Below, piece by piece: positions 30-20,369 of a stretch of DNA of 64,000 nt (the first letter of the stretch is position 1; each line of letters opens with the position of its first letter). The notes below the pieces were generated by a model, which did not search any database, was not told where the DNA came from, and worked only from the letters and a program-made list of their open reading frames with translations. The stretch covers positions 3,453-67,452 of the forward strand of contig CANJVU010000011.1 in assembly GCA_947478525.1 (NCBI GenBank), given 5' to 3'. The position numbers and the translations under genes were made by a program. This DNA comes from Thiotrichales bacterium (GTDB lineage Bacteria > Pseudomonadota > Gammaproteobacteria > Francisellales > CACEW01).

Positions 30-69
30 GACAATACTAAATGATAATGCCAAGTGAGAGGATTTGAAT

Positions 70-522: not shown

Positions 523-545
523 GATGAACCCACAGGATTCCCACC

Positions 546-2753: not shown

Positions 2754-2947
2754 GGGTGCTCCAGTGCATCAAACACTTCCTTGGCGGTATTCAACGCATT
2801 AATGGTGGCTGGAAAGCCCACATAAATAATCAAATGCTGAATCAGTGCCAGAATTTCTGCTTTGGCCATACCGGCTTTCAACGCCGCTTTAATATGTACT
2901 GCCAGCTGCGGCTTAGTGTCTTTTTGCGTGATCAAACTGCTCAACAC
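2750..2947 (-). pseudogene. carboxymuconolactone decarboxylase (AhpD-like) family fragment, C-terminal half
   Basis: The 65-aa ORF starts at GTG and carries AALKAGMAKAEILALIQHLIIYVGFPATINAL, which is typical of the CMD C-terminus. An in-frame stop lies only 12 codons upstream, so the N-terminal half is missing. The ORF overlaps the methyltransferase start by 4 nt. Confidence 0.5.
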
Positions 2948-3079
2948 GATGATTTCTTGAAAAATTGAATTGCCTTGTGTAGGTCAGATACTCCCAAAAC
3001 AATATGATCTAACAATAATGCCGACATAGAAACCAGATTCCTGCTTTAGAAAATAGCTCGATTGTTACTTATTGCAAAG

Positions 3080-3586
3080 CTATATCTTAAACTCAAACTT
3101 CGCTTCTGTTACCACCCCAATGATTTTATCTTGGTAGGTAAACGGCAACGGATCTGCGCGATCATCGTTGGTTTGCAGCTCAACGTCATCGTCTTCCACC
3201 ACATATTTGCGCAGCAGGATTTTTTTCAGTTCATGAACATACACCAGCACAAAGCCACGGTTTCTGGGTTTCATATTGGGTTCTACCACCAATAACGTCG
3301 TGAGAGGAAACCGAGGTGCCATGTCGGTGGTGACCACTTCGGTAACAAACGCTGCAGCGCTGGCGTTGGGGGCAATGTTGACGCGCTTGCCGGAGAAATT
3401 CGCCAACAACTCTTTGTGGCGATGGGCTTGCGCAAAAGGAATCAACGGCAATTCTTTTTGTGCCGGTTGCATCGGGATTTTGCACAGGTTATATAGTGCT
3501 TCGCGTTCATGAGTAGGAATCATGGCAGAAAGATCTCCGCATTGATGATCTGTATGCTTAGGTATACCATAAAATTCTGCTTTCAT
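3080..3586 (-). CDS. hypothetical protein, co-directional with and 3 nt downstream of the pentapeptide-repeat gene
   Basis: 168-aa ORF with no competing frame. I recognise no family motif. Confidence 0.55.
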   Translation of the reverse strand: MKAEFYGIPKHTDHQCGDLSAMIPTHEREALYNLCKIPMQPAQKELPLIPFAQAHRHKELLANFSGKRVNIAPNASAAAFVTEVVTTDMAPRFPLTTLLVVEPNMKPRNRGFVLVYVHELKKILLRKYVVEDDDVELQTNDDRADPLPFTYQDKIIGVVTEAKFEFKI

Positions 3587-3589
3587 AAA

Positions 3590-4729
3590 TTAAATTTTCC
3601 TTATTGTTGGGCCTATTGGACCTACCGGGCCTATTTTGACGTCACCGCGCATTTTTCTGCTGAATGCTTCCGCTTCGCCCAGCTCCGGGTCAATCCAGAT
3701 GGCTTCCTGCTGCTGACGAGCATTAAAGTCAACATTAGCTAACACCGCACCATGAAACAGGGTTTTAAATAAATTGGCCTGGTTAAATTGACTATCCGAT
3801 AAATCTGCTTTCATAAAATTAGCGTGCACCAAATTGCAATTATTAAAAATTGTACCATGGGCTTTGGCACCAACAAATATCGCGCCTGACAATACACTTT
3901 TACTAAAATCAGAACCGCTCACCTCTGCTTCCGAAAAGATACCGCTGGTCAAATCCGCACTGGTTAGCGAGGCTTTGGTTAATTGCGCGCGATGAAAAGA
4001 AACCGCTGAAGTTTTTACTCGATCAAAGTGAGCTCCTGTTAAATTGGCTTCTTTAAAAATACAGCCTTGCAAAATGGCGTCATCAAATACCGCATCGGTT
4101 AAATTGGCTGAGGTAAAATTCAAACGGTCCAATGTCAATCCACTAAAATCAACACCACTTAAATTGCATTGGATCAAATGCGTCTCGCTCAATACCTCAA
4201 ACGGCAGAGTGGCCTGACGTAAATCACAATTACCAAAAGCGCCCAGTTGCCAGGTAACCTCTTTAAATTCCAAGTTAGCAAACCCAACGTTCATGTACTG
4301 GCAATTAATAAAGTGAGTCTTGTCAAAAATAAGGTTGGTTCTCTTACTTCCGGTGCTTTGTTCACCTTTCAGGGCACCGCCCTGCCAAGTGACGTGATCC
4401 TGTTCAACATTATTCCAGACACTACCGATAAAAACAGAGTCGATAATCTGCATGTTTTTCCAGGCACCCCCAGTCCAGAAGAAGTTGGTATCCCACTGGC
4501 TGTTTTTGATGGTCACGGCTTCAAAACGGCAGTTGGTAAAATGACAGCGGTCCACCATGCAGTGATCAAAAGTAACGTTTTTAAAAGTACAGTGTTGATA
4601 GTCGCGCTTTTTGAAAGTGATGCCAGTAAATACCTGATTCTCAATTACTTGATTACAGACAGGACCGTATTGGTTTTTCAACTCTTCTAATTCCGCCATC
4701 GCTTTTTCAAAATCCTTGCCAAGATTCAT
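3590..4729 (-). CDS. pentapeptide-repeat protein
   Basis: Long runs of A(D/N)LxX-type pentapeptides, for example ANLTDAVFDDAILQGCIFKEANLTGAHF and ADLSDSQFNQANLFKTLF. There is an N-terminal coiled segment. Confidence 0.85.
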   Translation of the reverse strand: MNLGKDFEKAMAELEELKNQYGPVCNQVIENQVFTGITFKKRDYQHCTFKNVTFDHCMVDRCHFTNCRFEAVTIKNSQWDTNFFWTGGAWKNMQIIDSVFIGSVWNNVEQDHVTWQGGALKGEQSTGSKRTNLIFDKTHFINCQYMNVGFANLEFKEVTWQLGAFGNCDLRQATLPFEVLSETHLIQCNLSGVDFSGLTLDRLNFTSANLTDAVFDDAILQGCIFKEANLTGAHFDRVKTSAVSFHRAQLTKASLTSADLTSGIFSEAEVSGSDFSKSVLSGAIFVGAKAHGTIFNNCNLVHANFMKADLSDSQFNQANLFKTLFHGAVLANVDFNARQQQEAIWIDPELGEAEAFSRKMRGDVKIGPVGPIGPTIRKI

Positions 4730-4855
4730 TACGCGCCCCTTGATTTTGAGGTCTTATTATACTCATTAATTCTTAAAAAGCAAATATTTTAATTGAAATT
4801 TTCTCGAATTTGTTTTAATATGACAAAATAAAGTCAATTAAGTTACGAGAAACTT

Positions 4856-7654
4856 ATGTCCTCCACACCACTTGCTTACATTAACCAATTGGACATTGCT
4901 CAGGTACCAGAAACCAAACCACAGCATTATCAAACACAATTAAGCTGGATGTTTGAACCTGCATCGATAGTCATTGCATCCGGTGAGTTGAAATTCGATG
5001 ACGCCAGCATTCCCACGGTTGACCTGGTCGCAGGTGATCGCTCAGTGATTATCGGCAATTTGCAAAACAATATTGATTATGATGGCACGTTAACGCTCAA
5101 GCTCAATAATGGCCAAACACTGACACAGGAAGTATCATGGGTTAATTTCAAAGGCTTAAACCGCATCACCTGGAAATTCAACATCAACAGCACCGGCCAA
5201 CTGTCCGGTAAATTATTTTGGGGCATGCCAGAGGAGTTATCGGCGCAGGTATTGAGTTTTCAATTAAGCTCCATGCAGATCGATGATAATAATCCTTTTA
5301 GTGTAGCCGCTAATAAAAATGGCATTGCCCTATCCAGCCTGAAACCCTCAACCAAACACACCATTGACTGGATGGCCAAGCTGCGCTCTGGCAACAAGCT
5401 CGACTGCATGCTGATGGCCACCACGCCCGTTGTCGTTATTGCGCCGCCACAACCAGGCCCACGTTCGCTCGGACATCAACACACCATGCAAAACGGTCAG
5501 GTCAATCAGGTGTGGAATATCCCGCAAACCACCTATCACCTGCCGCTCGGGCAAGACCAGGTCACGCATCAAGACAACGCCATGACCTTTGCGCAGACGC
5601 CGCATATCGCCCCAAACAGCCTGGTGAGCGCTGCCGGTAATGATTATGTGCAAAGCTTTAGCCGCGATCAGGTCAATGATTTACCCAGCTACGATCAAGC
5701 CATTCAAAATGCTCCCAAACAAGCGTTGAGCACCACCACCCAAAAAACGCTGACGCATGTTGGTGATAGCCAAGTTACTCATGCCGGCACTACGGTAATC
5801 AACACGCATGTGCTGCACAAACAACATAAAATCGATAGCCCCTATATCAGCAACCAGCACCAGGGCAAACGAATCGAAGTGTTGAATGGCCAAACCTATA
5901 CGCGTAACCACATCAACTACAGCCGCAACAGTAACCAAGAAGTGGCACAACACGGCATGCTCACGCAGCAATATGGCTCCTCAATGACGGACGTGCAAGA
6001 AGTAACGCAAACCATTGGCACGCAACAACTACAAGCGGGGACACAAGTACTGTCTGCACAAACCAAAGTGGTCACACGCAACACCACCATCAATGCCAAC
6101 AGCGTAAATTTTGGTACCTCTCCCACTAAAAAATGGGATCGTATCGCCGGGTGTCCGCAGATTTTTCTAGCTTATCTCACGCCAGATTACTGGTATTTTG
6201 GTAAAAAACCCCAAAGCACCCAGGGGTTTGTGGATATCGGTTATCTCTTTTGTGACTACATCAGAAGCCCAAGCGTTGAAATGGTGGAATTAGGCAACCG
6301 AAAATTGCCGTACCCCACCAGCCAGGCTGATGCTAAAACCAGTGATTGCAGCGTTGTCGCAGAAGCCCAATATCCCACACGCGCAGGTGACAAACTGCTA
6401 ACCGTTAAAACCTTGTTTCCGCCGGTGATTGTGAATTTGCGTACCGATGCCTACAAACCAGATCCCAAAGACTCCAAAAAATTGATCCCGAAAGAACCCA
6501 ACGCGCGCCAAACGCTTTCTGATAAAGAAATCGCCTATTTCACCGCGATGGGTCAAAACGCCACCATCATGATCCACGGTTTTGGCGTCACCTATGGCGC
6601 GTTTGCGAATCAGATTGCTGATATCACCCCACAACAAACCGTTGTAAACATTAATACCCCTAATCCTAAAATGGCACTCACTGTCAGTGTCAGAAGAACC
6701 GATTATCCCAGCACCATCTGTACCACCTTCGATCAACTTAAAAAACGCTATCCTGTTCTCGATAAGGCCAACCTCGTACTACCTGCATCATTAGATCCGC
6801 AAGATGACAGCTGTCTCAATGGTACCGATGCCCACGCCTGGTTGGTGCATATAGAAGACAACCTCAATCGCGCCAGCAACCAATTTGACGGCAGCGATTA
6901 CAGCAAATACCAACGCGTTATCACCGTTACTTGGTCAGGGGATGTGTTTCTCCCCAATTATATTGACTCAGAAGAAGTTGCGGATGCTGCGGGTATACAA
7001 CTGGCGCCACTGCTCAAACAGCTCATCGATGCCGGTATCAAAATCAATATCATTGCCCACAGCATGGGTAATCGAGTGCTTTTAAAAGCGCTAGAAACCC
7101 TGGCAGCGCTGGGTGGAAATTATCGTCAAAACTCCATTGACCATATTTTCATGTGGGACGCTGCGGTGCCTGATACTGCGCTGTCAAACGATCCGACAAA
7201 AGATTTAAGCGCTAAACGCAATTGCTACTTCAAAGATGCAATCCTGCCGCCGAAGAAGATTACTGTACTCTATTCCCAAAATGATGAAGTGTTAAAACAT
7301 CTCTATACATGGGCGAATGATGAATATCAGGATACAGATCAAGTTGGAAGAGTTGTCTGGAATGACGTTGCTCCAGAGTTCGCACAACCCATTCCAGAAG
7401 ATAAAGTTGTACCTGCATTGGGGTGGAGTGGACCGGATGATTCTACGATTGCTGAATTAGGCAAAAAGCTGATTCAAGCAGATTTAACCAAATGGACCAA
7501 GGGTTATTCGTTTTTAGAAAGCCACTCTTACATGCAGATACCGAATGCTGTTATTATGGAGCATGCTTATAAAACTTGGATTATTAACCAAAACTACGGC
7601 ATGCAATCATTTGGAGTTTATAATAGAGCGTTATTTGACAAAGGTATGAGCTAA
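4856..7654 (+). CDS. large multidomain protein with a C-terminal DUF900-type alpha/beta hydrolase (putative lipase/esterase) domain
   Basis: 932 aa. HGFGV lies near nt 6570. VTWSGD...NIIAHSMGNRVLL carries a GxSxG nucleophile elbow, with the Ser codon at 7061-7063. The central ~200 aa are rich in Q/T/N/H/V and look beta-strand-like. Confidence 0.8.
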   Translation: MSSTPLAYINQLDIAQVPETKPQHYQTQLSWMFEPASIVIASGELKFDDASIPTVDLVAGDRSVIIGNLQNNIDYDGTLTLKLNNGQTLTQEVSWVNFKGLNRITWKFNINSTGQLSGKLFWGMPEELSAQVLSFQLSSMQIDDNNPFSVAANKNGIALSSLKPSTKHTIDWMAKLRSGNKLDCMLMATTPVVVIAPPQPGPRSLGHQHTMQNGQVNQVWNIPQTTYHLPLGQDQVTHQDNAMTFAQTPHIAPNSLVSAAGNDYVQSFSRDQVNDLPSYDQAIQNAPKQALSTTTQKTLTHVGDSQVTHAGTTVINTHVLHKQHKIDSPYISNQHQGKRIEVLNGQTYTRNHINYSRNSNQEVAQHGMLTQQYGSSMTDVQEVTQTIGTQQLQAGTQVLSAQTKVVTRNTTINANSVNFGTSPTKKWDRIAGCPQIFLAYLTPDYWYFGKKPQSTQGFVDIGYLFCDYIRSPSVEMVELGNRKLPYPTSQADAKTSDCSVVAEAQYPTRAGDKLLTVKTLFPPVIVNLRTDAYKPDPKDSKKLIPKEPNARQTLSDKEIAYFTAMGQNATIMIHGFGVTYGAFANQIADITPQQTVVNINTPNPKMALTVSVRRTDYPSTICTTFDQLKKRYPVLDKANLVLPASLDPQDDSCLNGTDAHAWLVHIEDNLNRASNQFDGSDYSKYQRVITVTWSGDVFLPNYIDSEEVADAAGIQLAPLLKQLIDAGIKINIIAHSMGNRVLLKALETLAALGGNYRQNSIDHIFMWDAAVPDTALSNDPTKDLSAKRNCYFKDAILPPKKITVLYSQNDEVLKHLYTWANDEYQDTDQVGRVVWNDVAPEFAQPIPEDKVVPALGWSGPDDSTIAELGKKLIQADLTKWTKGYSFLESHSYMQIPNAVIMEHAYKTWIINQNYGMQSFGVYNRALFDKGMS

Positions 7655-7656
7655 CC

Positions 7657-8772
7657 ATGCGTAAGCATTTTAAAAAAATCATAGCTGGCACTGTGCTATT
7701 AATTGTTATTTTTATCACCGCCGTGATCTCTTTGTATCAACACTTTTTTGATGCTGGTGTTGTGGATATGCTGAGCATTTCTAGTGATGGAAAATACGTC
7801 ATTAGCACCGATGAAAAAGAATGGGCAGTATTATGGAATTTGCAAACCCATACCAAAAAAGTTCTTGATAAGCATGCGCATATCTTTAGTGCTTATTTTA
7901 TCCCGAACACCGATGAATTTTTATGGCAGAGCCAAGACAAAACCATTCATATTGAAAATGTGGATGGCCAAATCATCAAAGAATTCAAGTTACCTTTTTA
8001 CATTTATGGCATCGCCATGCCAAAAAATTCGGAACATTTTATGGTGGGTGATATTGGTGATGGCCAATATTATTGTCATTTAACTCATTGTGTTATGATT
8101 TCAAAACCTGGCAGCTCCGACCCCAGTGTATTTTTAGCTGATCAACCTCATGTTTATTCAATTGATAACGCGAATAATCGGTATGTATTAGGTTCAAATC
8201 TGTGGGGAGTTTATTTATGGGATCTGAATACAGGCAAGATTGTTCATCATTATCAAGGAAATGTCGGCAAGACCTTTGCAACATTAAGTCCAAATGGTAA
8301 ATATGTAGTTTCTGCTGATGAAGATAGCTGGCAATTTGTTTGGGATACTGGAACTGGCCAACCCTTGGTACAAAATTTACTGGCTTGTCCTATTATTAAA
8401 GTCAATGAAGATAGTTCTGTTATTCTTGACAAAAACGTTGTACAACCTCCTGGAGATTATTCTGGCTCAGGAGATCACCCTAATTATGCTTTTCTAACTG
8501 TAAAGTTTGTTGATGATACACATTACCTACTCTTTCCAACTTATACGCCCTACGCCATCCTTTATGAAACCACTAATCCAAAACCATTAAAATACTTGCC
8601 ACTCGGCCGTCATCCAGTGCCATCCGTCAGTTATTATCAACGTGACGAAGCAATTGATACTTCTCCCAGTGCGCATATTTTGGTGACGGGTAAAGATAAT
8701 GAAGGTGGGATTCTGGTTTATCACTATGACCCGAAAAATCAGACGCTAACAAAAGTATGGGATGGTGTATAA
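7657..8772 (+). CDS. membrane-anchored WD40-like beta-propeller protein
   Basis: The ATG lies 2 nt after the stop of the hydrolase gene. The N-terminal TM segment is IIAGTVLLIVIFITAVISLY. Repeated blade motifs are SSDGKYVISTDEKEWAVLWNLQT, NRYVLGSNLWGVYLWDLNTG and SPNGKYVVSADEDSWQFVWDTGTG. Confidence 0.7.
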   Translation: MRKHFKKIIAGTVLLIVIFITAVISLYQHFFDAGVVDMLSISSDGKYVISTDEKEWAVLWNLQTHTKKVLDKHAHIFSAYFIPNTDEFLWQSQDKTIHIENVDGQIIKEFKLPFYIYGIAMPKNSEHFMVGDIGDGQYYCHLTHCVMISKPGSSDPSVFLADQPHVYSIDNANNRYVLGSNLWGVYLWDLNTGKIVHHYQGNVGKTFATLSPNGKYVVSADEDSWQFVWDTGTGQPLVQNLLACPIIKVNEDSSVILDKNVVQPPGDYSGSGDHPNYAFLTVKFVDDTHYLLFPTYTPYAILYETTNPKPLKYLPLGRHPVPSVSYYQRDEAIDTSPSAHILVTGKDNEGGILVYHYDPKNQTLTKVWDGV

Positions 8773-10153
8773 GCAATCTATGCCGAATAAATATATTTCC
8801 TTTTTTCTTTTAATCGCCTTATGTTTACCTGTGGCGATTGCCTGTGTAGACCTTATGGCTGTAAGTGTTGCGCTTAATATAATAATGCGTGAGTTTTCAG
8901 TTTCTGCCGCTGAATCCCAGTGGTTAATCAGCGCTTATACAATAGGCTCAGCCTCATTTCTAATTTTAGTTGGTAAATTGGCTGACCTATATGGCCGTCG
9001 AAAATGGTTGATAATTGGAGTCGCTCTTTTTGGTGCAGCCTCTCTCTTAGCTGGATTTGCTCCTTACATGATTGTTTTAATTATAGCGCGGTTTTTGCAA
9101 GGAGTGGCAAGCTCCATTATGATGACAACGGTAGTTTCAATTATTATTCATCACTTTATTGCAGAGCAACGTACACATGTGCTCGCAAAATGGGTGTTAT
9201 CTTTAGGGGTTGGCTTAGCCTTAGGTCCTCTAGTAGGAGCCTTAATATTACATTTCACGAGTTGGAGATTCATTTTTTTTATCAACGTTCCCATTTGTTT
9301 GTGTGCATATTACTTAATTACAAAATACGCTCCAGAATCCAGAGACACCACAAACAAAATTAAAATAAGCTGGGGAGAGAGCCTTCTTCTTAGCATTACA
9401 TTGATTTTATTGGTGTCTATTCTTTCTGCAAGTGAAGACTGGGGGTGGCGCTCTCTACTCATGTACGAACTCCTAGTTGGTTTTTTACTTTTAATGGTAA
9501 GTTATGCGGTTTTGTTACGATTGAAGGGAAGTACCCTTATCGACTTATCTTTATTTAAATTAAAAAATTACTTTAAAGGCAGTTTTTGTGGATTCCTCTC
9601 ATATTTCTGCATGTACGGATGGCTATTTATTTTTGCACTATACCTACAAAAATATTGCGGCATGAGCCCTATTGAAACCGGCATGATGTTCGTTTCATAT
9701 GCGATTACCTCAGCGGTGTGCGCTCAATATATGGCTAAAATTATTAAAAGCTGGGGGAAAAAGTTTCCCATTCTTATAGGCTTTTCAGTGGCGTTAATTG
9801 CTTTTGTATGGATGTCAAAAATTAATTCTTTCACTCCAATTTGGCAATTGATTTTAATGTCAGCACTTCCTGGCATTATGATAACTTTTGTTAATGTTGC
9901 TTCTATGAATCTAGCGATGAGTGAAGTTCCTTCAGAAAAAACAGGCATTGCTTCGGGTATTTTTTTCACCATACGGTGGCTTGGCGGTTCAATTGGCGTA
10001 GCCATTATTACTTTATTATTTGAGAATGCTAATTATTTTAAAGGATTAAGTAATATAAAAGCAGCGTGTTTAGGGCTGGCTGTTTTTGCCACGCTGGGCT
10101 TATTTTTAGGTGCAAGTATAAAAGCGCCAATAAAACTCATGCCCCGCGAGTAG
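8762..10153 (+). CDS. MFS transporter, DHA2 (EmrB/QacA-like, ~14 TMS) family
   Basis: MFS motif GKLADLYGRRKWLIIG and many hydrophobic segments. An alternative start is the ATG at 8780. Confidence 0.85.
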   Translation: MVYKQSMPNKYISFFLLIALCLPVAIACVDLMAVSVALNIIMREFSVSAAESQWLISAYTIGSASFLILVGKLADLYGRRKWLIIGVALFGAASLLAGFAPYMIVLIIARFLQGVASSIMMTTVVSIIIHHFIAEQRTHVLAKWVLSLGVGLALGPLVGALILHFTSWRFIFFINVPICLCAYYLITKYAPESRDTTNKIKISWGESLLLSITLILLVSILSASEDWGWRSLLMYELLVGFLLLMVSYAVLLRLKGSTLIDLSLFKLKNYFKGSFCGFLSYFCMYGWLFIFALYLQKYCGMSPIETGMMFVSYAITSAVCAQYMAKIIKSWGKKFPILIGFSVALIAFVWMSKINSFTPIWQLILMSALPGIMITFVNVASMNLAMSEVPSEKTGIASGIFFTIRWLGGSIGVAIITLLFENANYFKGLSNIKAACLGLAVFATLGLFLGASIKAPIKLMPRE

Positions 10154-10173
10154 ATATTGATTTATCGGGAACA

Positions 10174-10860
10174 TTATAACTTTAGCGGATTGATTAAAAC
10201 TCTATCATCATAAACATCCGCTTTTTCATATATTTTCAAAAACATGACCAATACACTCAGAAGTGGCGTAATTAGAGCTATCACAGCCAATTCAAATAAA
10301 AAATTATGTAATGAAAGTTCCAATATTACTGAGAATTTAACTACTCCAGCATATGAACCTATAAGCACTAATGTTGCGCTTGTTATTACGGCTATACTGG
10401 ACGAACCCATGCTTCTAAGCCAAAAGAATCTTCCGCGAATCAACGCCTTCCATTTTGCGATGAGATATCCATTGATAAGGCTCGCACAAAATACAGCAAT
10501 GGTACCAGAAATTAAGCCTCTCATATAAAACCATTGCAAATTTTGATAATCGATGGGAGTTGCTATGTTTGAGGCAACGGGGAAAGAAAGTGCAAAATAA
10601 AGAAAAAGTCCAAAAATGTAATCACATAAAAGTCTGAACCATATAATTCGTTTCAGCATTTTAAACCCATAAACCTCAGCAATGCTATCGCCAATAGGAT
10701 AGCATAAAACATATACTAATGGCGATGCGGGAAGAATGAACGAAAAAATATGCACATACCGATACCCTAGTAACGTTGAAGCAATATCAGCTGTGAGGTA
10801 AAGCATGCTAATAAAAGTAAGAAGTTTATATTGAGTTTTTTCAGAATGGTTTAATTCCAC
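10174..10860 (-). CDS. VUT/YhhQ-family (DUF165) queuosine-precursor transporter-like membrane protein
   Basis: Polytopic membrane protein with a YPIGDSIAEVYG motif characteristic of YhhQ-like proteins. Confidence 0.65.
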   Translation of the reverse strand: MELNHSEKTQYKLLTFISMLYLTADIASTLLGYRYVHIFSFILPASPLVYVLCYPIGDSIAEVYGFKMLKRIIWFRLLCDYIFGLFLYFALSFPVASNIATPIDYQNLQWFYMRGLISGTIAVFCASLINGYLIAKWKALIRGRFFWLRSMGSSSIAVITSATLVLIGSYAGVVKFSVILELSLHNFLFELAVIALITPLLSVLVMFLKIYEKADVYDDRVLINPLKL

Positions 10861-11020
10861 TTTAATTGACCTATATTTCTAAAATTTGAACCTTAGTAAA
10901 ACATATTTAAAGGGGTTGTGCAATCTGAATGGTGCAATCGGAAGCTAGCTACTCTGAGTTTAATTTGTTAACATAGAAATAGATGCTATGCATATGAAAG
11001 ACTCACTTTAAGGCATTTAA

Positions 11021-11950
11021 ATGAATAAACAAAAACATCAGCAAAATATTTTTACGTTATTTACCAAGATCTTTAGACAAGAATTGGGAAGGAATAATGA
11101 ACTTCAAGTGTCGTATCGGATTATTAACTTACCTACTGAAAAAGACACACATGTTCACTTCCAAATCATTGGCAAAGGAATTGTTCTTAAAATGACTCCC
11201 GCAAAAATCATGCGCGATGAAATGCTTATGGGATTTAGCAAGGCTGATATCGCATTGATTACGCATTATGGCACCAAAGCTGAGTATCAAGCAGAGTCAA
11301 ATAAAAAACGAGGCATCTTGTCTCGAATCGTTCAGCAACTTTTTGGTGATAAACAATCCGCTTTTTTAATTCATGACGCCGAGCAAGAAAAAGTAATTGA
11401 AAAAACTGCACAGGAACTATATTTTGATCCTTCTACTAAAGAACGTTTTAGCAGTGCTGATGCATTGGTAATTGGTTACAGTGCTGCTGAGGAACGCTAT
11501 CGACAATTAGTAGCTGAAACAAAATTTAAGCCAGAATATGAGATGCTCTCGATTGGAGACGGAGCTGTATTTTATCGTCATCACGAAACACAGCATGTGG
11601 TAAATCAATCTGCTGAAACATTATTCAACACTCCCAAAGTATTCAAAAAATTTAATGCTGATGACAGGAGTCTGATTAGTTATACTGCTGCCGAAGCAAG
11701 ATATCAGAGGATTATGAAGGAAACGAAGGCACAGATTAATTTTAAACTGTGTAATACTGCTCCGGATGATCATAATTGCTGGCAGTACCAATCTCTAAGC
11801 ACTGGCGATTTACTGATGACTTCAGTTGATGCACTATTTTATGATACTAATACCTTGAAGCAATTTAGTGCTGATGACCTTAGTCTTATTGCCTTTGCAG
11901 CGGGCGAGCTTTCTAAAAAGAGACAACTGGAACTTGCGACTACGCATTAG
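11021..11950 (+). CDS. hypothetical protein built from four tandem copies of a ~60-70 aa domain shared with the small ORFs at 12811 and 13938
   Basis: Four repeats each end in a similar stretch:
- MLMGFSKADIALITHYGTKAEYQ
- ERFSSADALVIGYSAAEERYRQL
- KKFNADDRSLISYTAAEARYQRI
- KQFSADDLSLIAFAAGELSKKRQL. Confidence 0.7.
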   Translation: MNKQKHQQNIFTLFTKIFRQELGRNNELQVSYRIINLPTEKDTHVHFQIIGKGIVLKMTPAKIMRDEMLMGFSKADIALITHYGTKAEYQAESNKKRGILSRIVQQLFGDKQSAFLIHDAEQEKVIEKTAQELYFDPSTKERFSSADALVIGYSAAEERYRQLVAETKFKPEYEMLSIGDGAVFYRHHETQHVVNQSAETLFNTPKVFKKFNADDRSLISYTAAEARYQRIMKETKAQINFKLCNTAPDDHNCWQYQSLSTGDLLMTSVDALFYDTNTLKQFSADDLSLIAFAAGELSKKRQLELATTH

Positions 11951-12637
11951 TTAATAATCGGTGCGATGCTGCATCATGCGCGCAATGATAGAATCCCCTA
12001 CCCCCATTTTATGAGTTTGATAACGGGGATCTTGCGCATATAAAAACTTACCGCTGTCGCTCAACACATATTGCCGGAAAATGGCATCTGGCAATTTATT
12101 GATTTTCGCCAATACATAATCACCATCACGCGGTGAAACGTCTGGGTCGAAAATTAAAACCGATCCTTCTGGAAAGCGCCCACTCATGGCTGTACCTTGA
12201 GCGTAGATCACAAAAGCGCGCGACCCTACATTAATATCTAACGCCAGAGTTTCACCCACAAAGTTTTCGACATGTTTATCGAAATCAACGGCTTCGTGAT
12301 AGCTCAAAATAGGTAATTTGCGCAGTCCACTGTTATTGGTTGCTGGCTTGCTGGCAAGCATTTCACCTTTGCTAAACTCCAGCCAATCATATTCAACACC
12401 AAGACGCTGTGCTAATTCACGGCGACGAGCTTTCGCTGGCAGAACTAAACCATTGACCCACTTACCTGCGCCAGCATGAGACAACAAAAACATTTCGGAA
12501 ACATATTGAATACGTCCGTGGTTTTTAGGAGGGATGCCGTTATGATCTAACGCTTGATTCAAACGCGCAGCAAAAGCCAGCAGATGATCGTTATCTGCCG
12601 GTACTTTTTCAACATCGCTTTCTTCATTATGCACCAT
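11951..12637 (-). CDS. phage CI/LexA-like repressor (N-terminal HTH + C-terminal S24 peptidase-like domain)
   Basis: The C-terminal half aligns with lambda CI (FPEGSVLIFDP..., GDYVLAKI, SDSGKFLYAQDPRYQ). The dyad positions read QGTAMS and AIFRQY instead of GxSM and K. The gene is transcribed divergently from the small-ORF module. Confidence 0.85.
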   Translation of the reverse strand: MVHNEESDVEKVPADNDHLLAFAARLNQALDHNGIPPKNHGRIQYVSEMFLLSHAGAGKWVNGLVLPAKARRRELAQRLGVEYDWLEFSKGEMLASKPATNNSGLRKLPILSYHEAVDFDKHVENFVGETLALDINVGSRAFVIYAQGTAMSGRFPEGSVLIFDPDVSPRDGDYVLAKINKLPDAIFRQYVLSDSGKFLYAQDPRYQTHKMGVGDSIIARMMQHRTDY

Positions 12638-12716
12638 CTACTGACAGGCTCCCATGTTAAATTCGGGATCATTATATATAATTTCTTGGTAAAAAGCACT
12701 AAATTTCTCCAAAAAT

Positions 12717-12763
12717 AAAACCAAAATGAAACTATTGACTTTTTAAATTATTTGGTTTTAAAT
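12717..12763 (+). promoter_or_regulatory. candidate promoter plus 9-bp inverted repeat (possible operator), module copy 1
   Basis: TTGACT at 12735-12740, a 17-nt spacer, then TTAAAT at 12758-12763. AAAACCAAA at 12717-12725 and TTTGGTTTT at 12751-12759 form a perfect 9-bp inverted repeat that brackets the -35 box. Confidence 0.35.
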
Positions 12764-12810
12764 GGCATTGTTGTACCGAAACTCACTTTAACTAACACAG
12801 GGGAATGACC

Positions 12811-13047
12811 ATGACTACTTATCAATACCAACTGATCGCTGTTAACCAATCTTTATACACTGATACCAAAATCATTTTTGAAATTCGCAGCGATGCAGGG
12901 TTCACCATCAAATTGCCAGCACTGGAAGTTGCGCATAATGCGGTATTGATGGAAAACATGTCTCCTGCAGATATCAAACGTGTGATGTATTTTGCGGGTG
13001 TATTGGAAGGCACTGCGCAAGCGAAAGAAGTAGAAGTTGCTGCCTAA
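12811..13047 (+). CDS. small protein A1 (78 aa), single-domain member of the repeat family found in the 309-aa protein
   Basis: I chose the start by homology with copy 2 (AGGGGA, 7 nt, ATG). The protein differs from the 13938 paralog at 10 of 78 residues, all conservative. Confidence 0.7.
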   Translation: MTTYQYQLIAVNQSLYTDTKIIFEIRSDAGFTIKLPALEVAHNAVLMENMSPADIKRVMYFAGVLEGTAQAKEVEVAA

Positions 13048-13069
13048 TATCGCGGAGGAGAAAGCGCGC

Positions 13070-13094
13070 GAGGTGAATTTTTTAAGTTCACCTC
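13070..13094 (+). promoter_or_regulatory. conserved hairpin after ORF A1 (no T-tract)
   Basis: GAGGTGAA and TTCACCTC form an 8-bp stem. The equivalent hairpin is retained in copy 2 even though the loop sequence differs. Confidence 0.4.
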
Positions 13095-13128
13095 CCCTAC
13101 CTCTACTAACTTTAACAAGGACTAAGCC

Positions 13129-13365
13129 ATGAAAGCATCTAAACTCAAAACCACCATGACCGAACATCAAGACTTGATCGCACAAACTTTTACCATCACC
13201 CTTACCTTTGCCGATGGCCGCACCAAAAAAGGCTCACCCTTGAAATTGATGGCCAACAAAAAATTGGTGGCATCGTTACCGGAATCCTATGCTATGCGCC
13301 TTGGCTTCTTGGCAGGCGTTGAGCATGTCATCAATCAACGCAAACAGCGCAAAGATTTTAAATAA
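13129..13365 (+). CDS. small protein B (78 aa), present only in module copy 1
   Basis: It lies within the 283-nt segment (13095-13377) that is missing from copy 2. Its C-terminal part (LMANKKLVASLPESYAMRLGFLAGVEH) loosely resembles the same domain family. Confidence 0.55.
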   Translation: MKASKLKTTMTEHQDLIAQTFTITLTFADGRTKKGSPLKLMANKKLVASLPESYAMRLGFLAGVEHVINQRKQRKDFK

Positions 13366-13388
13366 TCGGAGTTCAATGGGAGTACACC

Positions 13389-13514
13389 ATGATTACTCGC
13401 AAAGCCCTTATTATCGAAGAAAACCACGACCCAGAAAGCCAACGAATTTTAATCAGCCTCGCGTATGATGGCAAAATTTTTATTGATTCTCATCGACTGG
13501 TTCCTTGCACGTAA
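13389..13514 (+). CDS. short ORF C (41 aa), conserved in-frame in both module copies; possible CsrA-like remnant
   Basis: Sequence MITRKALIIEENHDPESQRILISLAYDGKIFIDSHRLVPCT. The first ~17 codons are conserved in copy 2 (14231 onward) with an in-frame 3-nt indel. It overlaps the 3' end of the convergent HTH gene by 66 nt. Confidence 0.25.
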   Translation: MITRKALIIEENHDPESQRILISLAYDGKIFIDSHRLVPCT

Positions 13515-13775
13515 AAAAATTGTCCCGCGTGAGATTGCGCAGTTTATCGGTATCTTCTGACAGGCGTTTGGCTCTAAGGTGCCAATATGTGGCGTGGTTG
13601 ATTTGCCGGTAGCGATGCGATGAATGGTCGGCTGCGGAATATTAAGCTCACGCGCCAGATCCATCGCGCGCATTTTCTTTTCGAAGAGCAAGCGACTCAG
13701 AATTTCGTCTAAGGTACCGTGCGTTTCTTTCATCATCTCGGTGGTGTTATTCATAATGGAGACCATTGTATACAA
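13449..13775 (-). CDS. XRE/Cro-CI family HTH regulator (no S24 domain)
   Basis: MRAMDLARELNIPQPTIHRIATGKSTTPH is a canonical HTH_3 motif. The start is ambiguous, with several Met codons between 13775 and 13740. Confidence 0.65.
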   Translation of the reverse strand: MYTMVSIMNNTTEMMKETHGTLDEILSRLLFEKKMRAMDLARELNIPQPTIHRIATGKSTTPHIGTLEPNACQKIPINCAISRGTIFLRARNQSMRINKNFAIIREAD

Positions 13776-13848
13776 TATTCAATATCATTGAAGCCCCCTT
13801 TCTATCAAAAGGTTTAAGGGGTATTTAAAAATATTTTCAAAAATACTG

Positions 13849-13877
13849 TTGACACGACAAAAACTAAAATGTATATT
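13849..13877 (+). promoter_or_regulatory. candidate sigma70 promoter, module copy 2
   Basis: TTGACA at 13849-13854, a 17-nt spacer, then TATATT at 13872-13877. Confidence 0.5.
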
Positions 13878-13937
13878 TAATGCAAGTTAAGCAGAAATGC
13901 ATAACTCAAACCGAAAACTAACAACAGGGGAACGAAC

Positions 13938-14174
13938 ATGAACTCATATCAATACCAACTGATCGCGGTTAACCAATCTTTGTACTCAGATACTAAAATC
14001 ATTTTCGAAATTCGCAGCGATGCAGGTTTCACCATTAAATTACCAGCACTGGAAGTGGCGCATAATGCAATATTGATGGACAACTTGTCTCCTGCAGACA
14101 TCAAGCGTGTAATGTATTTCGCCGGCGTATTGGAAGGCGCTGCGCAAGTGAAAGACGTAGAAATTGCTGCCTAA
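13938..14174 (+). CDS. small protein A2 (78 aa), paralog of A1
   Basis: AGGGGA RBS 7 nt upstream. About 87% amino-acid identity to A1. Confidence 0.7.
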   Translation: MNSYQYQLIAVNQSLYSDTKIIFEIRSDAGFTIKLPALEVAHNAILMDNLSPADIKRVMYFAGVLEGAAQVKDVEIAA

Positions 14175-14196
14175 TATCGCGGAGGAGAAAGCGCTG

Positions 14197-14221
14197 GAGG
14201 TGATTTTCTTAGATTCACCTC
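14197..14221 (+). promoter_or_regulatory. conserved hairpin after ORF A2
   Basis: GAGGTGA and TCACCTC form a 7-bp stem, positionally equivalent to 13070-13094. Confidence 0.4.
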
Positions 14222-14322
14222 ACCGGGAGTACGCCACAATTACTCGCAAAGCGGTTATCGAAGAAAACCACGATCCAGACAGTCAACACTTTATATATCT
14301 AGGAGATTCGAGTGATTCAGAA

Positions 14323-14399
14323 TGGTCGGAGTGACAGGAATCGAACCTGCGGCCTCTGCTTCCCGAAAGCAGCGCTCTACCAAGCTGAGCTACACTCCG
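14323..14399 (-). tRNA. tRNA-Pro (anticodon CGG)
   Basis: The reverse complement reads CGGAGTGTAGCTCAGCTTGGTAGAGCGCTGCTTTCGGGAAGCAGAGGCCGCAGGTTCGATTCCTGTCACTCCGACCA. It has a 7-bp acceptor stem, a D-loop (AGCTCAGCTTGGTAGAGC), the anticodon loop TTCGGGA, a T-arm (GGTTCGATTCC) and an encoded CCA. Confidence 0.92.
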
Positions 14400-17339: not shown

Positions 17340-17404
17340 TTACTCGATTTACATCTCTACACCACAGATTATAATGGTATCAAATAATCAATCGATTGAG
17401 AACC

Positions 17405-19777
17405 ATGATGAAAGTAGCAGTACTGTGCGGCGGACCTTCGTTAGAACGAGGCATTTCGTTAAACTCTGCACGCTCGGTGTTGGATCATTTGTCCAGCGAC
17501 CAAATTGAGATTGTGCCAATTTATTTTGACGTCACCGGCAAGGCGTATCATATTTCCTGCTCGCAGTTGTACAGCAACACACCGTCAGATTTCGATTTCA
17601 AACTTAAGCAAACTGCAAAACCGCTGACACAAAAATCATTAATCACTCTGCTCAAAACGGTAGACATTGCTTTCCCGGCGATGCATGGCCCGTTTGGTGA
17701 AGATGGCGGCGTACAGACGTTGTTGGAACACAATGGCATTCCATTTATTGGTTCTGGCTCCGAAGCCTGCCAGCTAGCGTTTGATAAATATATTTCCAAC
17801 GAACATATCGCAGAGGCCGGGTTTTTCACCCTGCCGTCGTTGTTGATTGAACCACAAGACACCCAGATCAAGAAAAAACTCACCGCGTTTTTCAAGCAAC
17901 ATCAAATTGAACGCGCGATTGTTAAACCCGCCAGTGGCGGTTCGAGCATCGGCGTTTATTCAGTATCTACCGTCGCAGATGCAATGGAACGTATTGCCTT
18001 TTTATTCGAACAACGGATGGATGCCCGCCTAGTGGTAGAGCCCTTCGCACAAGGCGTTGAATTTACCGTGATTATCTTAGAAAATCGCTTTGGCTTACCC
18101 GTCGCCCTACCCCCAACAGAAATTGAAACTGATTATACCGAACACCAGATTCTCGATTTCCGTAAAAAGTATTTACCCACCCGCCAAGTGATCTGGCACT
18201 GTCCACCACGCTTTGAAGATAAAGTGATTGAAAAAATTCAGGCACAGGCCGAACAATTGTTTGCACTGTTTGGCATGCATGACTTTGCAAGGTTTGATGG
18301 CTGGGTGATGCCCGATGGCAACATCTGGTTCTGCGACTTTAACCCCATTAGCGGTATGGAACAGAACAGCTTTTTGTTCCAACAGTCCTCGCGCATTGGC
18401 TTTACGCACGCTGGCGTGTTGCGTCACGTCTTGCAAACCGCGTGTGCGGGTTATGATATTCCGTTCCCGGTACCAAAACCTAAAACCAAACAGCAACCGC
18501 GTAAACAGGTCAATGTATTATTTGGTGGCCAAACCTCTGAGCGCCAAGTATCACTGATGAGCGGCACCAATGTCTGGCTGAAATTACGCGGCTCAGAAGC
18601 CTATCAACCGCAACCCTATCTGCTGGATATGGAGGGCAACGTCTGGCACCTGCCGTATCATTTGGCGCTCAACCACACGGTCGAAGAAATTACCGAAAAC
18701 TGCAAAAACTATCCGCAGGCCAAACAACGCTTACAAAGCTTTGAGCAACGTACCCGCATTCGGTTAGGCTTACTCGATCAAAAAGACCCCATCGAATTTT
18801 TTGAACCAAAACGCATGACCTTGAATGAATTTATCAAACAATCGGAATTTGTGTTTATCGGCCTGCACGGTGGTTTTGGCGAAGATGGCACGCTGCAAGG
18901 CATGTTGAGCAAACAAAAAGTTTTATTCAACGGCTCCAACGAAAAAATCTCGGCGCTGTGTATGGACAAATTCGCCACCGCGACGGCGATTCGTAGACTC
19001 AAACTCAACGGTGTTGATGCCATTATCAACCGCGCCATGGATACCGCCGATTTATTAACGCTAAACGATACGGGTATTAAAAAATTATGGGCTGCGTTGC
19101 AAACCGAATTAGCCACCTCGACCATGATCGTGAAACCACGAGCAGATGGTTGTTCGACCGGTGTCATTCATATCTACTCGGCACAAGATTTACAAAGCTA
19201 TGTCAACCTGCTGCGCCTGAAAGCGACGTTTGTACCGAAAGATACCTTCCCGCATCAACCGTTGATCATCGAGATGCCACTACAAGCGCCAAAATCGGTG
19301 CTGTTTGAACGCTTTATCGAAACCGACGTGCTGCACGTCAAGAACAACCAATTGCATCACCAGGCGAAAACCGGCTGGGTGGAAATCACCATTGGCGTGA
19401 TCATGCAAAATGGCAAGCTGCATGCACTCAACCCCAGCATCACCATTGCTGAAGGCGAAGTGCTATCAGTGGAAGAAAAATTCCAGGGCGGTACCGGCGT
19501 TAACATTACCCCACCACCCGCTGAGTTGGTTGATGCCAAAACGCTGCAGAAAATCAAAACCAATATTGAAACCCTGGCCACCAACATCGGCATTGAAGGT
19601 TACTCACGCATCGATGCGTTTATTCACCTCAAAACCGGCGAACTACAGATTATTGAAATCAACACGTTACCAGGTTTAACACCTTCAACGGTTTTGTATC
19701 ATCAGGGGTTGGCGGAGAAATCGATCCTGTTTCCACAGCAATTACTGGAACAGTTGGTGAAAAACAAAGGGTATTAA
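17405..19777 (+). CDS. fused tandem D-alanine--D-alanine ligase-like (two Ddl_N + ATP-grasp modules) protein
   Basis: Module 1: KVAVLCGGPSLERGISLNSA, MHGPFGEDGGVQ, VKPASGGSSIGV. Module 2: VNVLFGGQTSERQVSLMSG, LHGGFGEDGTLQG, VKPRADGCSTGV, IIEINTLPGLTPSTV. Start is the ATG at 17405 or 17408. Confidence 0.8.
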   Translation: MMKVAVLCGGPSLERGISLNSARSVLDHLSSDQIEIVPIYFDVTGKAYHISCSQLYSNTPSDFDFKLKQTAKPLTQKSLITLLKTVDIAFPAMHGPFGEDGGVQTLLEHNGIPFIGSGSEACQLAFDKYISNEHIAEAGFFTLPSLLIEPQDTQIKKKLTAFFKQHQIERAIVKPASGGSSIGVYSVSTVADAMERIAFLFEQRMDARLVVEPFAQGVEFTVIILENRFGLPVALPPTEIETDYTEHQILDFRKKYLPTRQVIWHCPPRFEDKVIEKIQAQAEQLFALFGMHDFARFDGWVMPDGNIWFCDFNPISGMEQNSFLFQQSSRIGFTHAGVLRHVLQTACAGYDIPFPVPKPKTKQQPRKQVNVLFGGQTSERQVSLMSGTNVWLKLRGSEAYQPQPYLLDMEGNVWHLPYHLALNHTVEEITENCKNYPQAKQRLQSFEQRTRIRLGLLDQKDPIEFFEPKRMTLNEFIKQSEFVFIGLHGGFGEDGTLQGMLSKQKVLFNGSNEKISALCMDKFATATAIRRLKLNGVDAIINRAMDTADLLTLNDTGIKKLWAALQTELATSTMIVKPRADGCSTGVIHIYSAQDLQSYVNLLRLKATFVPKDTFPHQPLIIEMPLQAPKSVLFERFIETDVLHVKNNQLHHQAKTGWVEITIGVIMQNGKLHALNPSITIAEGEVLSVEEKFQGGTGVNITPPPAELVDAKTLQKIKTNIETLATNIGIEGYSRIDAFIHLKTGELQIIEINTLPGLTPSTVLYHQGLAEKSILFPQQLLEQLVKNKGY

Positions 19778-19858: not shown

Positions 19859-20101
19859 ATGAGCGTTGTAACCGCAACACAGGCACGACAATCCATTTAT
19901 CAATTGGTCGATGAAGCTGAATTTCACCATCGCCCGGTGCATATTACTGGTAAACGCGGTAATGCCGTTTTGGTGGGCGAATCCGATTGGAATGATATCC
20001 AAGAAACACTTTATTTGCTTTCCATTCCCGGCATGCGCGAAAGCATTGTGGAAGGATTAAAAACCCCGGTCAGCAAATGCAGCAAAAAATTAGACTGGTA
20101 G
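19859..20101 (+). CDS. yefM: type II antitoxin, Phd/YefM family
   Basis: 80 aa. The N-terminal ATQARQSIYQLVDEA and LLSIPGMRESI are typical of YefM. It lies 4 nt upstream of the toxin gene. Confidence 0.85.
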   Translation: MSVVTATQARQSIYQLVDEAEFHHRPVHITGKRGNAVLVGESDWNDIQETLYLLSIPGMRESIVEGLKTPVSKCSKKLDW

Positions 20102-20105
20102 CCTC

Positions 20106-20369
20106 ATGAGTTACTCACTAGCCTATACCAAACAAGCAAGGCAAGACGCTAAAAAAGCCGCTTCTGGTGGATTAAAAACGAAAATTGAAACATTATTTGC
20201 GTTGATTGCTGAAGATCCCTATCAACAACCACCCCCTTACGAAAAATTGGTTGGAGACTTACAAGGCGCATTGTCACGACGTATTAATCTACAGCATCGA
20301 TTGGTTTATCAAGTGTTACCAAAAGAGAAAATCATTAAAGTGATTCGGATGTGGTCGCACTATGAATAA
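20106..20369 (+). CDS. yoeB: type II toxin, Txe/YoeB family mRNA interferase
   Basis: 87 aa. Contains LSRRINLQHRLVYQV...VIRMWSHYE, including the conserved C-terminal H-Y. Confidence 0.85.
   Translation: MSYSLAYTKQARQDAKKAASGGLKTKIETLFALIAEDPYQQPPPYEKLVGDLQGALSRRINLQHRLVYQVLPKEKIIKVIRMWSHYE

Follow-up and report, generated by a model that had tools for sequence, protein, structure and literature searches.

Beside a tRNA-Pro gene in an uncultured Thiotrichales bacterium, a repressor gene and a set of very small genes occur twice in a row, and we asked what this doubled module derives from and whether any of it could still work. The module lies in a 64,000-nt stretch of contig CANJVU010000011.1 (GenBank assembly GCA_947478525.1), which is referred to here, at its full length, as the window. 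An earlier sequence-only reading had described a tandem, diverged duplication of one repressor-plus-small-open-reading-frame (ORF) module and had likened it to lvrRABC, the regulatory cassette of Legionella integrative and conjugative elements (ICEs). The reading that we favor, at a probability of roughly 60%, is that two related ICEs have left their regulatory heads here, of different repressor/operator types and now decayed, stacked one behind the other at tRNA-Pro(CGG). The parts of copy 1 are designated repressor R1, small genes A1 and B, and the truncated gene C; those of copy 2, next to the tRNA, are designated R2', A2 and C' (Table 1).

A shared small-gene segment under two unrelated heads

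A direct repeat is present, as the sequence-only reading stated. It spans 300 nt at 88% identity (12797-13096 and 13924-14223), and a second block, corresponding to the first ~70 nt of ORF C, is 82-91% identical between the copies (13373-13443 and 14220-14287). The homology begins, however, only at the ribosome-binding site of A, ~15-20 nt 5' of its start codon. Upstream of that site the two intergenic regions, including the promoters, could not be aligned, and R1 showed no similarity to the 108-aa ORF that contains R2'. The duplicated part is therefore the A-hairpin-C segment only, with repressors and promoter regions that are unrelated, and the locus holds two modules with different heads rather than one module repeated. 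As the repressor/operator regions are unrelated though the A-B-C segments are related, the two heads would differ in immunity type.

Within the shared segment, A1 and A2 are both 78 aa long and differ at 10 residues, exactly as first counted, with dS 0.47 (synonymous), dN 0.057 (nonsynonymous) and dN/dS 0.12. This ratio agrees with the purifying selection that had been proposed for the two copies, but the selection may well be older than their side-by-side placement, and the ratio is therefore not proof that both copies are maintained here.

The additional segment of copy 1 does hold exactly gene B, although its length is ~276-280 nt and not 283 nt. The corresponding junction in copy 2 falls directly after the hairpin, at ~14223, where copy 2 reads TTCACCTC joined to ACCGGGAGTAC and copy 1 reads TTCACCTCCCC, then B, then TTCAATGGGAGTAC. 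Because B is present both in copy 1 and in the intact relative described below, copy 2 has lost it. The reported loss of the ORF C start codon from copy 2 was also seen, ATG having become ACA (CCATGATT versus CCACAATT). No origin was found for the 80-nt filler between C and R2', or for the 33-nt tail in front of the tRNA, when these were compared by blastn-short and tblastx with the window, contig L001 and the other loci. A 14-nt direct repeat has each of its copies at a module boundary: ATCTACTGACAGGC (12636-12649) lies just upstream of the R1 start codon, and ATCTTCTGACAGGC (13552-13565) lies exactly where the homology of R2' to the full-length repressor stops. In a region of this size chance would be expected to produce about one match of this kind, and the repeat was not used in the interpretation.

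An intact relative leads into conjugation genes

Outside this contig, the protein closest to A (67% identity) is encoded on L001, a 105-kb contig from the same metagenome assembly as the window, which was built from samples of the Rimov reservoir, Czech Republic (PMC10244341). On L001, a 221-aa repressor with HTH_26 and Peptidase_S24 domains (8933-9598, minus strand) is followed by A (85 aa), B (85 aa, although called as 84 aa) and C72 (72 aa, 10727-10945), a 184-aa HTH_19 gene on the minus strand, a CsrA-family gene (PF02599) located two genes after C, and four unannotated genes; then come genes for DUF2859, a TraG/TraD-like coupling protein, a DtrJ-like protein, RAQPRD, DUF3487, DUF2895 and DUF3438. 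We take this last set to be typical of the genomic-island-type (GI-type) clusters for type IV secretion systems (T4SS) found in ICEclc, PAPI-1, ICEHin1056 and the Legionella genomic islands. The order in this only complete relative is thus repressor-A-B-C-HTH-CsrA and then GI-type T4SS, where HTH denotes a helix-turn-helix gene.

Both window copies can be read against L001. B shares 84% identity with its L001 counterpart, the second of the small genes there, and the A2 promoter and leader align with the L001 promoter region, whereas those of copy 1 do not. The 108-aa ORF of copy 2 had been taken for a regulator consisting of an XRE domain only. Its first ~57 residues match those of the 221-aa L001 repressor at 81% identity, with the homology ending after TLEPxA, and by this comparison R2' is a 3'-truncated gene for an LvrR-type repressor of the HTH+S24 kind, not a small regulator in its own right.

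Repressor and A were also found together on two short contigs without T4SS genes in the recovered stretch. On L019 (5.1 kb) the pair is followed by truB-rbfA-infB, and on L020 (3.3 kb) by a Vut_1 gene. A remote A homologue (42-45% identity) lies between two PAS histidine-kinase genes on L009 (10001-10228), a contig of the same metagenome with a tetranucleotide correlation (r) of 0.94 to the window core; 3 kb upstream of it is an LvrR-type HTH gene without S24 domain, whose product is 63% identical to the L019 repressor, the A partner of which is likewise remote.

Table 1. Positions of the features of the locus within the window
Feature	Position	Strand	Remarks
Vut_1 transporter gene (YhhQ-type, queuosine-precursor/vitamin uptake)	10174-10860	minus	Pfam PF02592, E 2.5e-21
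309-aa ORF	11021-11950	plus	convergent with R1
R1, 228-aa CI-like repressor, intact	11951-12637	minus	Pfam Peptidase_S24
Candidate operator, inverted repeat	12716-12760		perfect 10-nt arms
Putative A1-B promoter	12735-12763	plus	TTGACT-17 nt-TTAAAT, read from sequence
A1, 78 aa, intact	12811-13047	plus	ORF; GGGG ribosome-binding site 7 nt upstream
GGA-rich tail and hairpin after A1	13050-13095	plus	
B, 78 aa, intact, copy 1 only	13129-13365	plus	
C fragment, ~31 codons of a C72-type gene	13389-13481	plus	41-aa ORF C continues to 13514 in unrelated sequence
Junction filler between truncated C and truncated R2	13482-13562	unstranded	
R2', HTH-only 5' remnant	13563-13775	minus	108-aa ORF continues to 13449 in unrelated sequence
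A2 promoter	13849-13877	plus	TTGACA-17 nt-TATATT
A2, 78 aa, intact	13938-14174	plus	87% identical to A1
GGA-rich tail and hairpin of copy 2	14177-14221	plus	
C' remnant, ~first 20 codons of C, start-less	14224-14290	plus	ends ~33 nt from the tRNA
tRNA-Pro(CGG), intact	14323-14399	minus	ARAGORN; Rfam tRNA 67.3 bits; 3' end faces the locus

Repressors, operators and promoters

R1 matched Peptidase_S24 (PF00717, E 1.2e-9) and the transcriptional repressor family PHROG_4 (E 5.8e-17). Its N-terminal domain is unrelated to that of R2', which matched HTH_26 in Pfam (E 1.8e-5); both proteins have matches among the PHROG families of transcriptional repressors. In pairwise comparisons, one HTH type was common to R2', to the repressors of L001, L020, L019 and L009, and to those of two Legionella plasmids.

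The Ser-Lys catalytic dyad of self-cleaving repressors of the LexA/CI type was not found in R1, as judged from a single low-identity alignment. Seven sequences were aligned with MAFFT at 16-20% identity: E. coli LexA; R1; the product of a window ORF at 3080-3586; and the repressors of L001 (8933-9598), L020 (4-681) and two L. pneumophila plasmids, L013 (4998-5648) and L014 (4968-5717). The dyad result is hence provisional. In R1, LexA Ser119 is replaced by Ala and Lys156 by Arg. The Lys156 position is likewise Arg in the repressors of L001, L020, L013 and L014 and in the ORF at 3080-3586, and the Ser119 position varies across LvrR-like S24 domains, being Ala, Ser, Thr or Asp. R1 probably does not self-cleave, and the alignment suggests that the whole LvrR-like clade may not do so either. 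If the Ala and Arg substitutions hold, induction would not proceed through classical RecA-stimulated self-cleavage.

The ORF at 3080-3586 (minus strand) encodes a 168-aa protein with little beyond an R1-like S24 domain and without an HTH (BLASTP E 1.6e-15 to R1). It lies directly downstream of the gene for a 379-aa pentapeptide-repeat protein (3590-4729, minus strand), in sequence of core-like composition.

A perfect 10-nt inverted repeat (TAAAACCAAA and TTTGGTTTTA) brackets the -35 box of the A1 promoter and overlaps its -10 box. Perfect arms of this length occurred in only 11 of 500 dinucleotide shuffles of the A1 intergenic region, and we regard the repeat as a candidate operator for R1. 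The sigma70-like promoters that had been called for both copies differ in quality: the A2 promoter is near-consensus, matching at 11 of 12 positions, whereas the A1 promoter is a moderate match to the consensus and scored under the threshold of the consensus scan. The leaders 3' of the A promoters share TTAATGCA or TGCATAA-like inverted or repeated motifs in the window (13872-13905), L001 (~9925-9965) and L019 (~715-745). These motifs are candidate operators for the LvrR-type HTH; copy 1 carries AATGGCATT instead.

The small proteins and the leader hairpin

No credible family was found for A1, A2, B or C in Pfam, NCBIfam or PHROG scans, and A and B gave nothing below E 0.1 in the PHROGs. A 17-member A profile had no match among PDB sequences, and none of the 17 members matched an HTH family. 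Homologues were sought in 5.8 billion proteins. A, B and the 17-sequence A profile served as queries in word-indexed searches, and one exhaustive HMMER run was made. The first searches returned nine proteins for A and three for B; the exhaustive run, with a 9-sequence A profile against 1.84 billion cluster representatives, returned nine clusters; and the 17-sequence profile returned 16 proteins. In total, there were ~18 A-family and three B-family proteins, all of them metagenomic and without functional names, the only name given being 'hypothetical protein'. A was not found in GTDB species-representative genomes or JGI metagenome contigs, and neither A nor B was found in the 2.9 million viral contigs of IMG/VR. 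When plasmids were searched by tblastn, the L001 B-family protein gave chance-level matches only and the L001 CsrA gave no match.

ORF C had been thought possibly CsrA-like. It is truncated in both copies, and its copy 1 form is 48% identical over 31 aa to C72 of L001; a B/C profile also matched it at E 0.002 among 1737 ORFs. C72 is in turn a paralogue of B (tblastn 30% over 60 aa, E 3e-5). ORF C contains no CsrA domain (PF02599) and had no Pfam match at E<=1, and C72 was likewise without a Pfam match. The absence of PF02599, together with the match to a B paralogue, ruled out a CsrA-like gene, and ORF C is better described as a fragment of a paralogue of B.

By eye, the 309-aa protein encoded convergently with R1 contains ~4 tandem A-like domains, in which the motif F-S/N-x-x-D-x-x-x-I-x-Y/F-x-A-A/G-E recurs. 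It had no match in Pfam, NCBIfam or PHROG. It did match a 177-aa protein of L001 (BLASTP E 2e-8), encoded immediately 3' of the repressor there; this 177-aa protein was also matched by the A-family profile, at E 0.002 among 1737 ORFs and at E 1.8e-5 in a 14-sequence set.

AlphaFold2 models of A and B had pLDDT (predicted local distance difference test) values of 85.6 and 87.4. Both models consist of three strands followed by two short helices and a long helix at the C-terminus, with these elements in the same order and in nearly superimposable positions. At E<=0.001, Foldseek found no match for the A model in PDB or BFVD and none for the B model in PDB. A direct comparison of A with B by hhalign gave E 0.046 and a probability of 1%, and the reciprocal profile matches among the A set, the B/C set and the 177- and 309-aa proteins were weak and pointed in the same direction. 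The identical predicted topology and these weak reciprocal matches suggest that A and B are related. The isoelectric point is ~4.8 for A1 and A2, and most A members are acidic or near neutral, with a few basic; A is therefore unlike a Cro-type DNA binder. B is strongly basic (isoelectric point 10.3) and could bind nucleic acid.

Both A genes are followed by a GGA-rich tail (TCGCGGAGGAGAAAGCGC) and a GAGGTGA...TCACCTC hairpin, in agreement with the original description of a tail and a stem-preserved hairpin in each copy. In copy 1 the tail reads CGCG-GAGGAGAAAG-CGCG and is followed by an 11-bp hairpin, GAGGTGAATTT...AAGTTCACCTC. No U-run was present after the hairpin. Its base, GAGGTG/CACCTC, is kept in copy 1, copy 2 and L001, while the upper stem and loop differ yet still pair. 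Among these three modules the conservation is suggestive.

The tRNA site

The adjacency to the 3' end of a tRNA-Pro gene was borne out; the locus ends ~33 nt from that of an intact tRNA-Pro(CGG), which is presumed to be a former integration site. From 7000 to 14322 the window has a GC content of 0.393, compared with 0.461 for the core, and its tetranucleotide r against the remainder of the window is 0.79; the 7 kb left of 7000 are core-like (r 0.955). The Vut_1 gene was probably carried as cargo on this foreign segment. Rightward of the tRNA is ordinary chromosome, with ispB, rplU, rpmA and obg followed by rne, dnaG, rpoD, lptD and surA.

Integrase and T4SS genes were absent from the parts of the window that were scanned (gene calls with Pfam from 2811 to 23047, and Pfam searches of eight ORFs within 64-10153 and of the ten largest ORFs within 23-58 kb), and no attachment (att) repeat was found, which accords with the orphaned state that had been inferred for the module. 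An att repeat of the tRNA 3' end was not found in L001 either. Window IspB was at most 51% identical to the three relatives recovered by a peptide-pattern scan of GTDB species-representative genomes, and among the nearest genomes only L017, a distant metagenome-assembled genome, has that tRNA. In L017, ispB and tRNA-Pro(CGG) are neighbors as in the window, but the genes that follow are unrelated, so that it offers no empty site for comparison.

Comparison with lvrRABC and other regulatory systems

The lvrRABC cassette forms the regulatory head of Legionella T4SS islands located at tRNA genes, tRNA-Pro included (Wee et al. 2013, PMC3864950; Gomez-Valero et al. 2011, PMC3218107). Legionella genomic islands integrate at tRNA genes, often repeatedly and with multiple att repeats, and two of them, LlbGI and LdrGI-b, use tRNA-Pro (PMC3864950).

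Among plasmids, matches to the L001 repressor were most numerous in Piscirickettsia (27 of 49 records) and included seven Legionella plasmids. On the L. pneumophila plasmid NZ_CP015948, a homologue of the L001 repressor occupies the lvrR position, divergent from genes for a 324-aa 'Vir protein' (LvrA), a 157-aa protein and a 67-aa protein, which are followed by csrA, traT and F-type tra genes; a VUT-family gene lies directly behind the repressor. The L001 repressor is 25.6% identical over 215 aa to the lvrR-position protein of L013 (pairwise E 7e-18; E 7e-11 in the search of the plasmid collection).

The proposed resemblance to lvrRABC holds for the architecture and for the repressor family, as seen in L001 and the L. 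pneumophila plasmids. An HTH plus S24-like repressor of the same family stands divergent from small genes, with the caveat that R2' is truncated and that R1 has a different N-terminus. In L001, though not in the window, the small genes lead to a CsrA paralogue and a T4SS cluster. The location at a tRNA gene is shared as well, and a VUT/YhhQ transporter gene and an S-adenosylmethionine (SAM) methyltransferase gene lie nearby, as on L. pneumophila plasmids.

The resemblance does not extend to the small genes: LvrA (324 aa), LvrB (157 aa) and the 67-aa protein have no homologue among A, B and C. When the A and B/C profiles were compared with these proteins, the best E value overall was 0.7; in the 14-sequence set there was nothing within the E 10 cut-off for L013 LvrA, and the best value for LvrB was 2.6. 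The 309-aa protein also failed to match LvrA by BLASTP (E 1.6). The intact L001 form differs further from lvrRABC in having three paralogous ~75-aa genes and a second HTH gene ahead of CsrA. The window differs in having two heads stacked and neither a CsrA gene (Pfam detected no CsrA domain in the ORFs of the locus) nor a T4SS cluster, its module abutting tRNA-Pro, ispB and rplU instead. The host, too, is different, being an uncultured freshwater gammaproteobacterium.

Vut_1 genes occur in L001 (3422-4135), L020 (1110-1838), L013 (5670-6419) and L014 (6470-7399) as well as in the window, that is, beside or near an LvrR-type repressor in five of the five contexts where the repressor keeps its S24-like domain. 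The Vut_1 proteins are mutually only ~28-30% identical, and recurrent linkage therefore looks likelier than one shared segment. A SAM methyltransferase gene recurs in L001, L013 and L014, and another was seen in the window at 1959-2753.

Under SetR-type control in ICEs of the SXT/R391 group, and in the CI/Cro systems of lambdoid elements, a CI-like S24 repressor is divergent from the first operon of the element, and the repressor-plus-operator cassette is swapped between otherwise similar elements, which creates different immunity types. The locus is alike in that R1 is a CI-like S24 repressor divergent from a first operon and in that the repressor/operator cassettes differ between the two heads. 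It differs in that R1 lacks the Ser/Lys dyad by alignment (Ala/Arg), which makes RecA-stimulated self-cleavage doubtful. Unlike in CI/Cro systems, the first gene, A, encodes a protein without an HTH that is acidic or near neutral in A1, A2 and most relatives. With decayed or accreted tRNA islands the locus has in common a foreign segment of lower GC content that ends at a tRNA 3' end, parts of more than one element, and internal deletions. It departs from them in having no integrase pseudogene or att repeat; what is present are regulatory heads and some cargo.

Origin and possible function of the locus

If the locus is the remainder of two ICEs, two elements with related A-B-C segments and unrelated repressor/operators would first have become stacked at the 3' end of tRNA-Pro(CGG). 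Deletions would then have removed everything 3' of the middle of C in both copies, and would also have taken the 3' two-thirds of the second repressor gene, the B gene of copy 2, both integrases and the att repeats. In what is left, R1 would bind the inverted repeat around the A1 promoter and keep A1 and B off. A2 would be constitutive, because only the HTH domain of its own repressor is left and its promoter is near-consensus, except where a resident ICE supplied a full-length L001-type repressor in trans; a resident ICE of the L001 type could plausibly act in this way. In an intact element A, B and C would be the first products made once the repressor is lifted, and they would presumably relay the signal to the CsrA paralogue and the transfer genes. 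In the window, nothing would be left to switch on. R1-A1-B may nevertheless still function as a repressor-controlled operon, since R-A pairs elsewhere occur without a T4SS and the unit could thus still be a working one.

Several observations weigh against an origin from two stacked ICEs. The tRNA 3' end has no copy of at least 12 nt elsewhere in the window, and there is neither an att remnant nor an integrase fragment to prove integration. R-A pairs occur without T4SS genes in the recovered stretches of L019 and L020, so an R-A unit can have an origin other than an ICE. The truncations of the two copies fall in one and the same small gene, C (at ~codon 31 and ~codon 20), which is odd for independent deletions and could mean a single truncation followed by local duplication. 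The ORFs of R1, A1, B and A2 are all intact, a state that retention would explain as well as recent decay. L001 and the window share an assembly and sequencing runs but are only roughly similar in composition, and they may not belong to the same genome. Finally, the L001 stretch examined contained no tRNA or integrase gene by which the orientation of its head relative to an attachment site could be fixed.

The intact ORFs also bear on the possibility that the locus is a domesticated chromosomal switch, in which R1-A1-B, and perhaps A2, are selected for host regulation or for immunity to or interference with ICEs of the same family, and the truncated pieces are incidental. We entertain this tentatively. 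Besides the four intact genes and the A1/A2 dN/dS of 0.12, it is in keeping with the R-A pairs with LvrR-type HTH on L019 and L020 and near the distant A on L009, and with the near-consensus A2 promoter. The R2' HTH, at 81% identity to that of an intact repressor and with the same promoter type, makes cross-talk physically plausible. Against these points, the low dN/dS may predate the joining of the copies, and C, R2 and the B gene of copy 2 are visibly decaying. The case is built on sequence, and the family is so rare that conservation among strains cannot be shown.

A tandem duplication in situ, as the sequence-only reading implied, would have copied an orphan module locally; the copies would then have diverged, one of them losing B and the C start, and one repressor/operator would later have been replaced. 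The head-to-tail layout and the ending of both copies inside C fit this course of events. So do the distances, as the A-to-C segments are nearer each other (88% of nucleotides; A 87%) than either is to L001 (A proteins 67-68% identical), and dS is 0.47 between A1 and A2 versus 1.1-1.5 to L001. We nonetheless consider local duplication doubtful. The repressors share nothing, the promoter regions cannot be aligned, and the repressor, promoter and leader of copy 2 are all of the L001 type, which would require an extra replacement exactly at the A ribosome-binding site. The truncation points in C differ between copies, and a dS of 0.47 is large for a local duplicate without flanking repeats.

A further view goes beyond this locus. 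The LvrR-type repressor and A might form an autonomous two-gene switch conserved in its own right, found at ICE heads and also beside truB and Vut_1. In that case A, B and C, together with the 177- and 309-aa proteins, would make up a new superfamily of three-strand, three-helix regulators acting on the repressor or on RNA rather than in a Cro-like manner, and orphan heads would owe their retention to a modulating effect in trans on a resident ICE of their family, by HTH competition at shared operators or by constitutive A. Taken as a whole, we think this chain of proposals unlikely.

The remnant of a prophage immunity region, with a CI-like repressor and a divergent Cro-like gene, is very improbable. 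The PHROG repressor matches of R1 and R2' and the divergent arrangement of repressor and small gene would suit it, but there were no phage genes nearby, A and B were missing from the viral contigs and from the PHROGs at the thresholds given above, and the A model had no match in BFVD. The only complete relative, L001, continues into conjugation genes, and the A proteins (A1 and A2 acidic, most other members near neutral, a few basic, none with an HTH) are unlike Cro. An assembly artefact fusing two strain variants of one module, as several short contigs that stop right after A1, as at a repeat, might suggest, deserves practically no credence, because contig L006, assembled separately from another sequencing run, covers 12153-14180 at 100% identity and so spans the whole R1-A1-B-C-R2'-A2 arrangement, and because the copies differ in flanks, repressors and gene content.

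Neighboring genes

At the far left of the window (64-522, plus strand), 13 kb from the tRNA, is a gene for a 152-aa HTH_17 protein (excisionase/AlpA-like). No integrase gene was found beside it in the 0.8 kb of extra sequence available on L018. Right of the tRNA, a 793-aa ORF (17396-19777, plus strand) consists of two complete D-Ala-D-Ala ligase units fused (Dala_Dala_lig_N/C twice), and just 3' of this ddl fusion lies a toxin-antitoxin pair of the YefM/YoeB type (19859-20369, plus strand; PhdYeFM_antitox, then a ParE/YoeB toxin).

Effector-like or eukaryote-like genes were seen at 25573-28620 (minus), 34538-36805 (minus), 4856-7654 (plus) and 7657-8772 (plus). Their products comprise a 1015-aa protein with an OTU cysteine-protease domain, a GH64 beta-1,3-glucanase, a 932-aa DUF900 hydrolase and a WD40 protein. 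In addition, a related contig encodes a U-box protein and the window encodes a pentapeptide-repeat protein. These genes give a hint of a protist- or host-associated lifestyle.

Significance

As two decayed ICE heads at a tRNA hot spot, the window copy would itself be ordinary, a textbook case of island decay. Its practical value lies in the record that it keeps of earlier ICE traffic and in the repressor fragments, possibly active in trans, that it may supply. The wider interest comes from its intact relative. The lvr-type control module, with its CI-like repressor, small genes, CsrA paralogue and T4SS, has been described as unique to Legionella. L001 presents the same layout in an uncultured freshwater gammaproteobacterium, with a repressor of the same family and wholly different small genes; the architecture is therefore conserved and the middle components are exchangeable. 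What is new here is the small-protein family of A, B and C and the lvr-type layout outside cultured Legionella. The folds of these proteins are predicted with confidence yet lack a structural match, and their relatives are very few, which makes them candidate members of a new class of ICE regulators.

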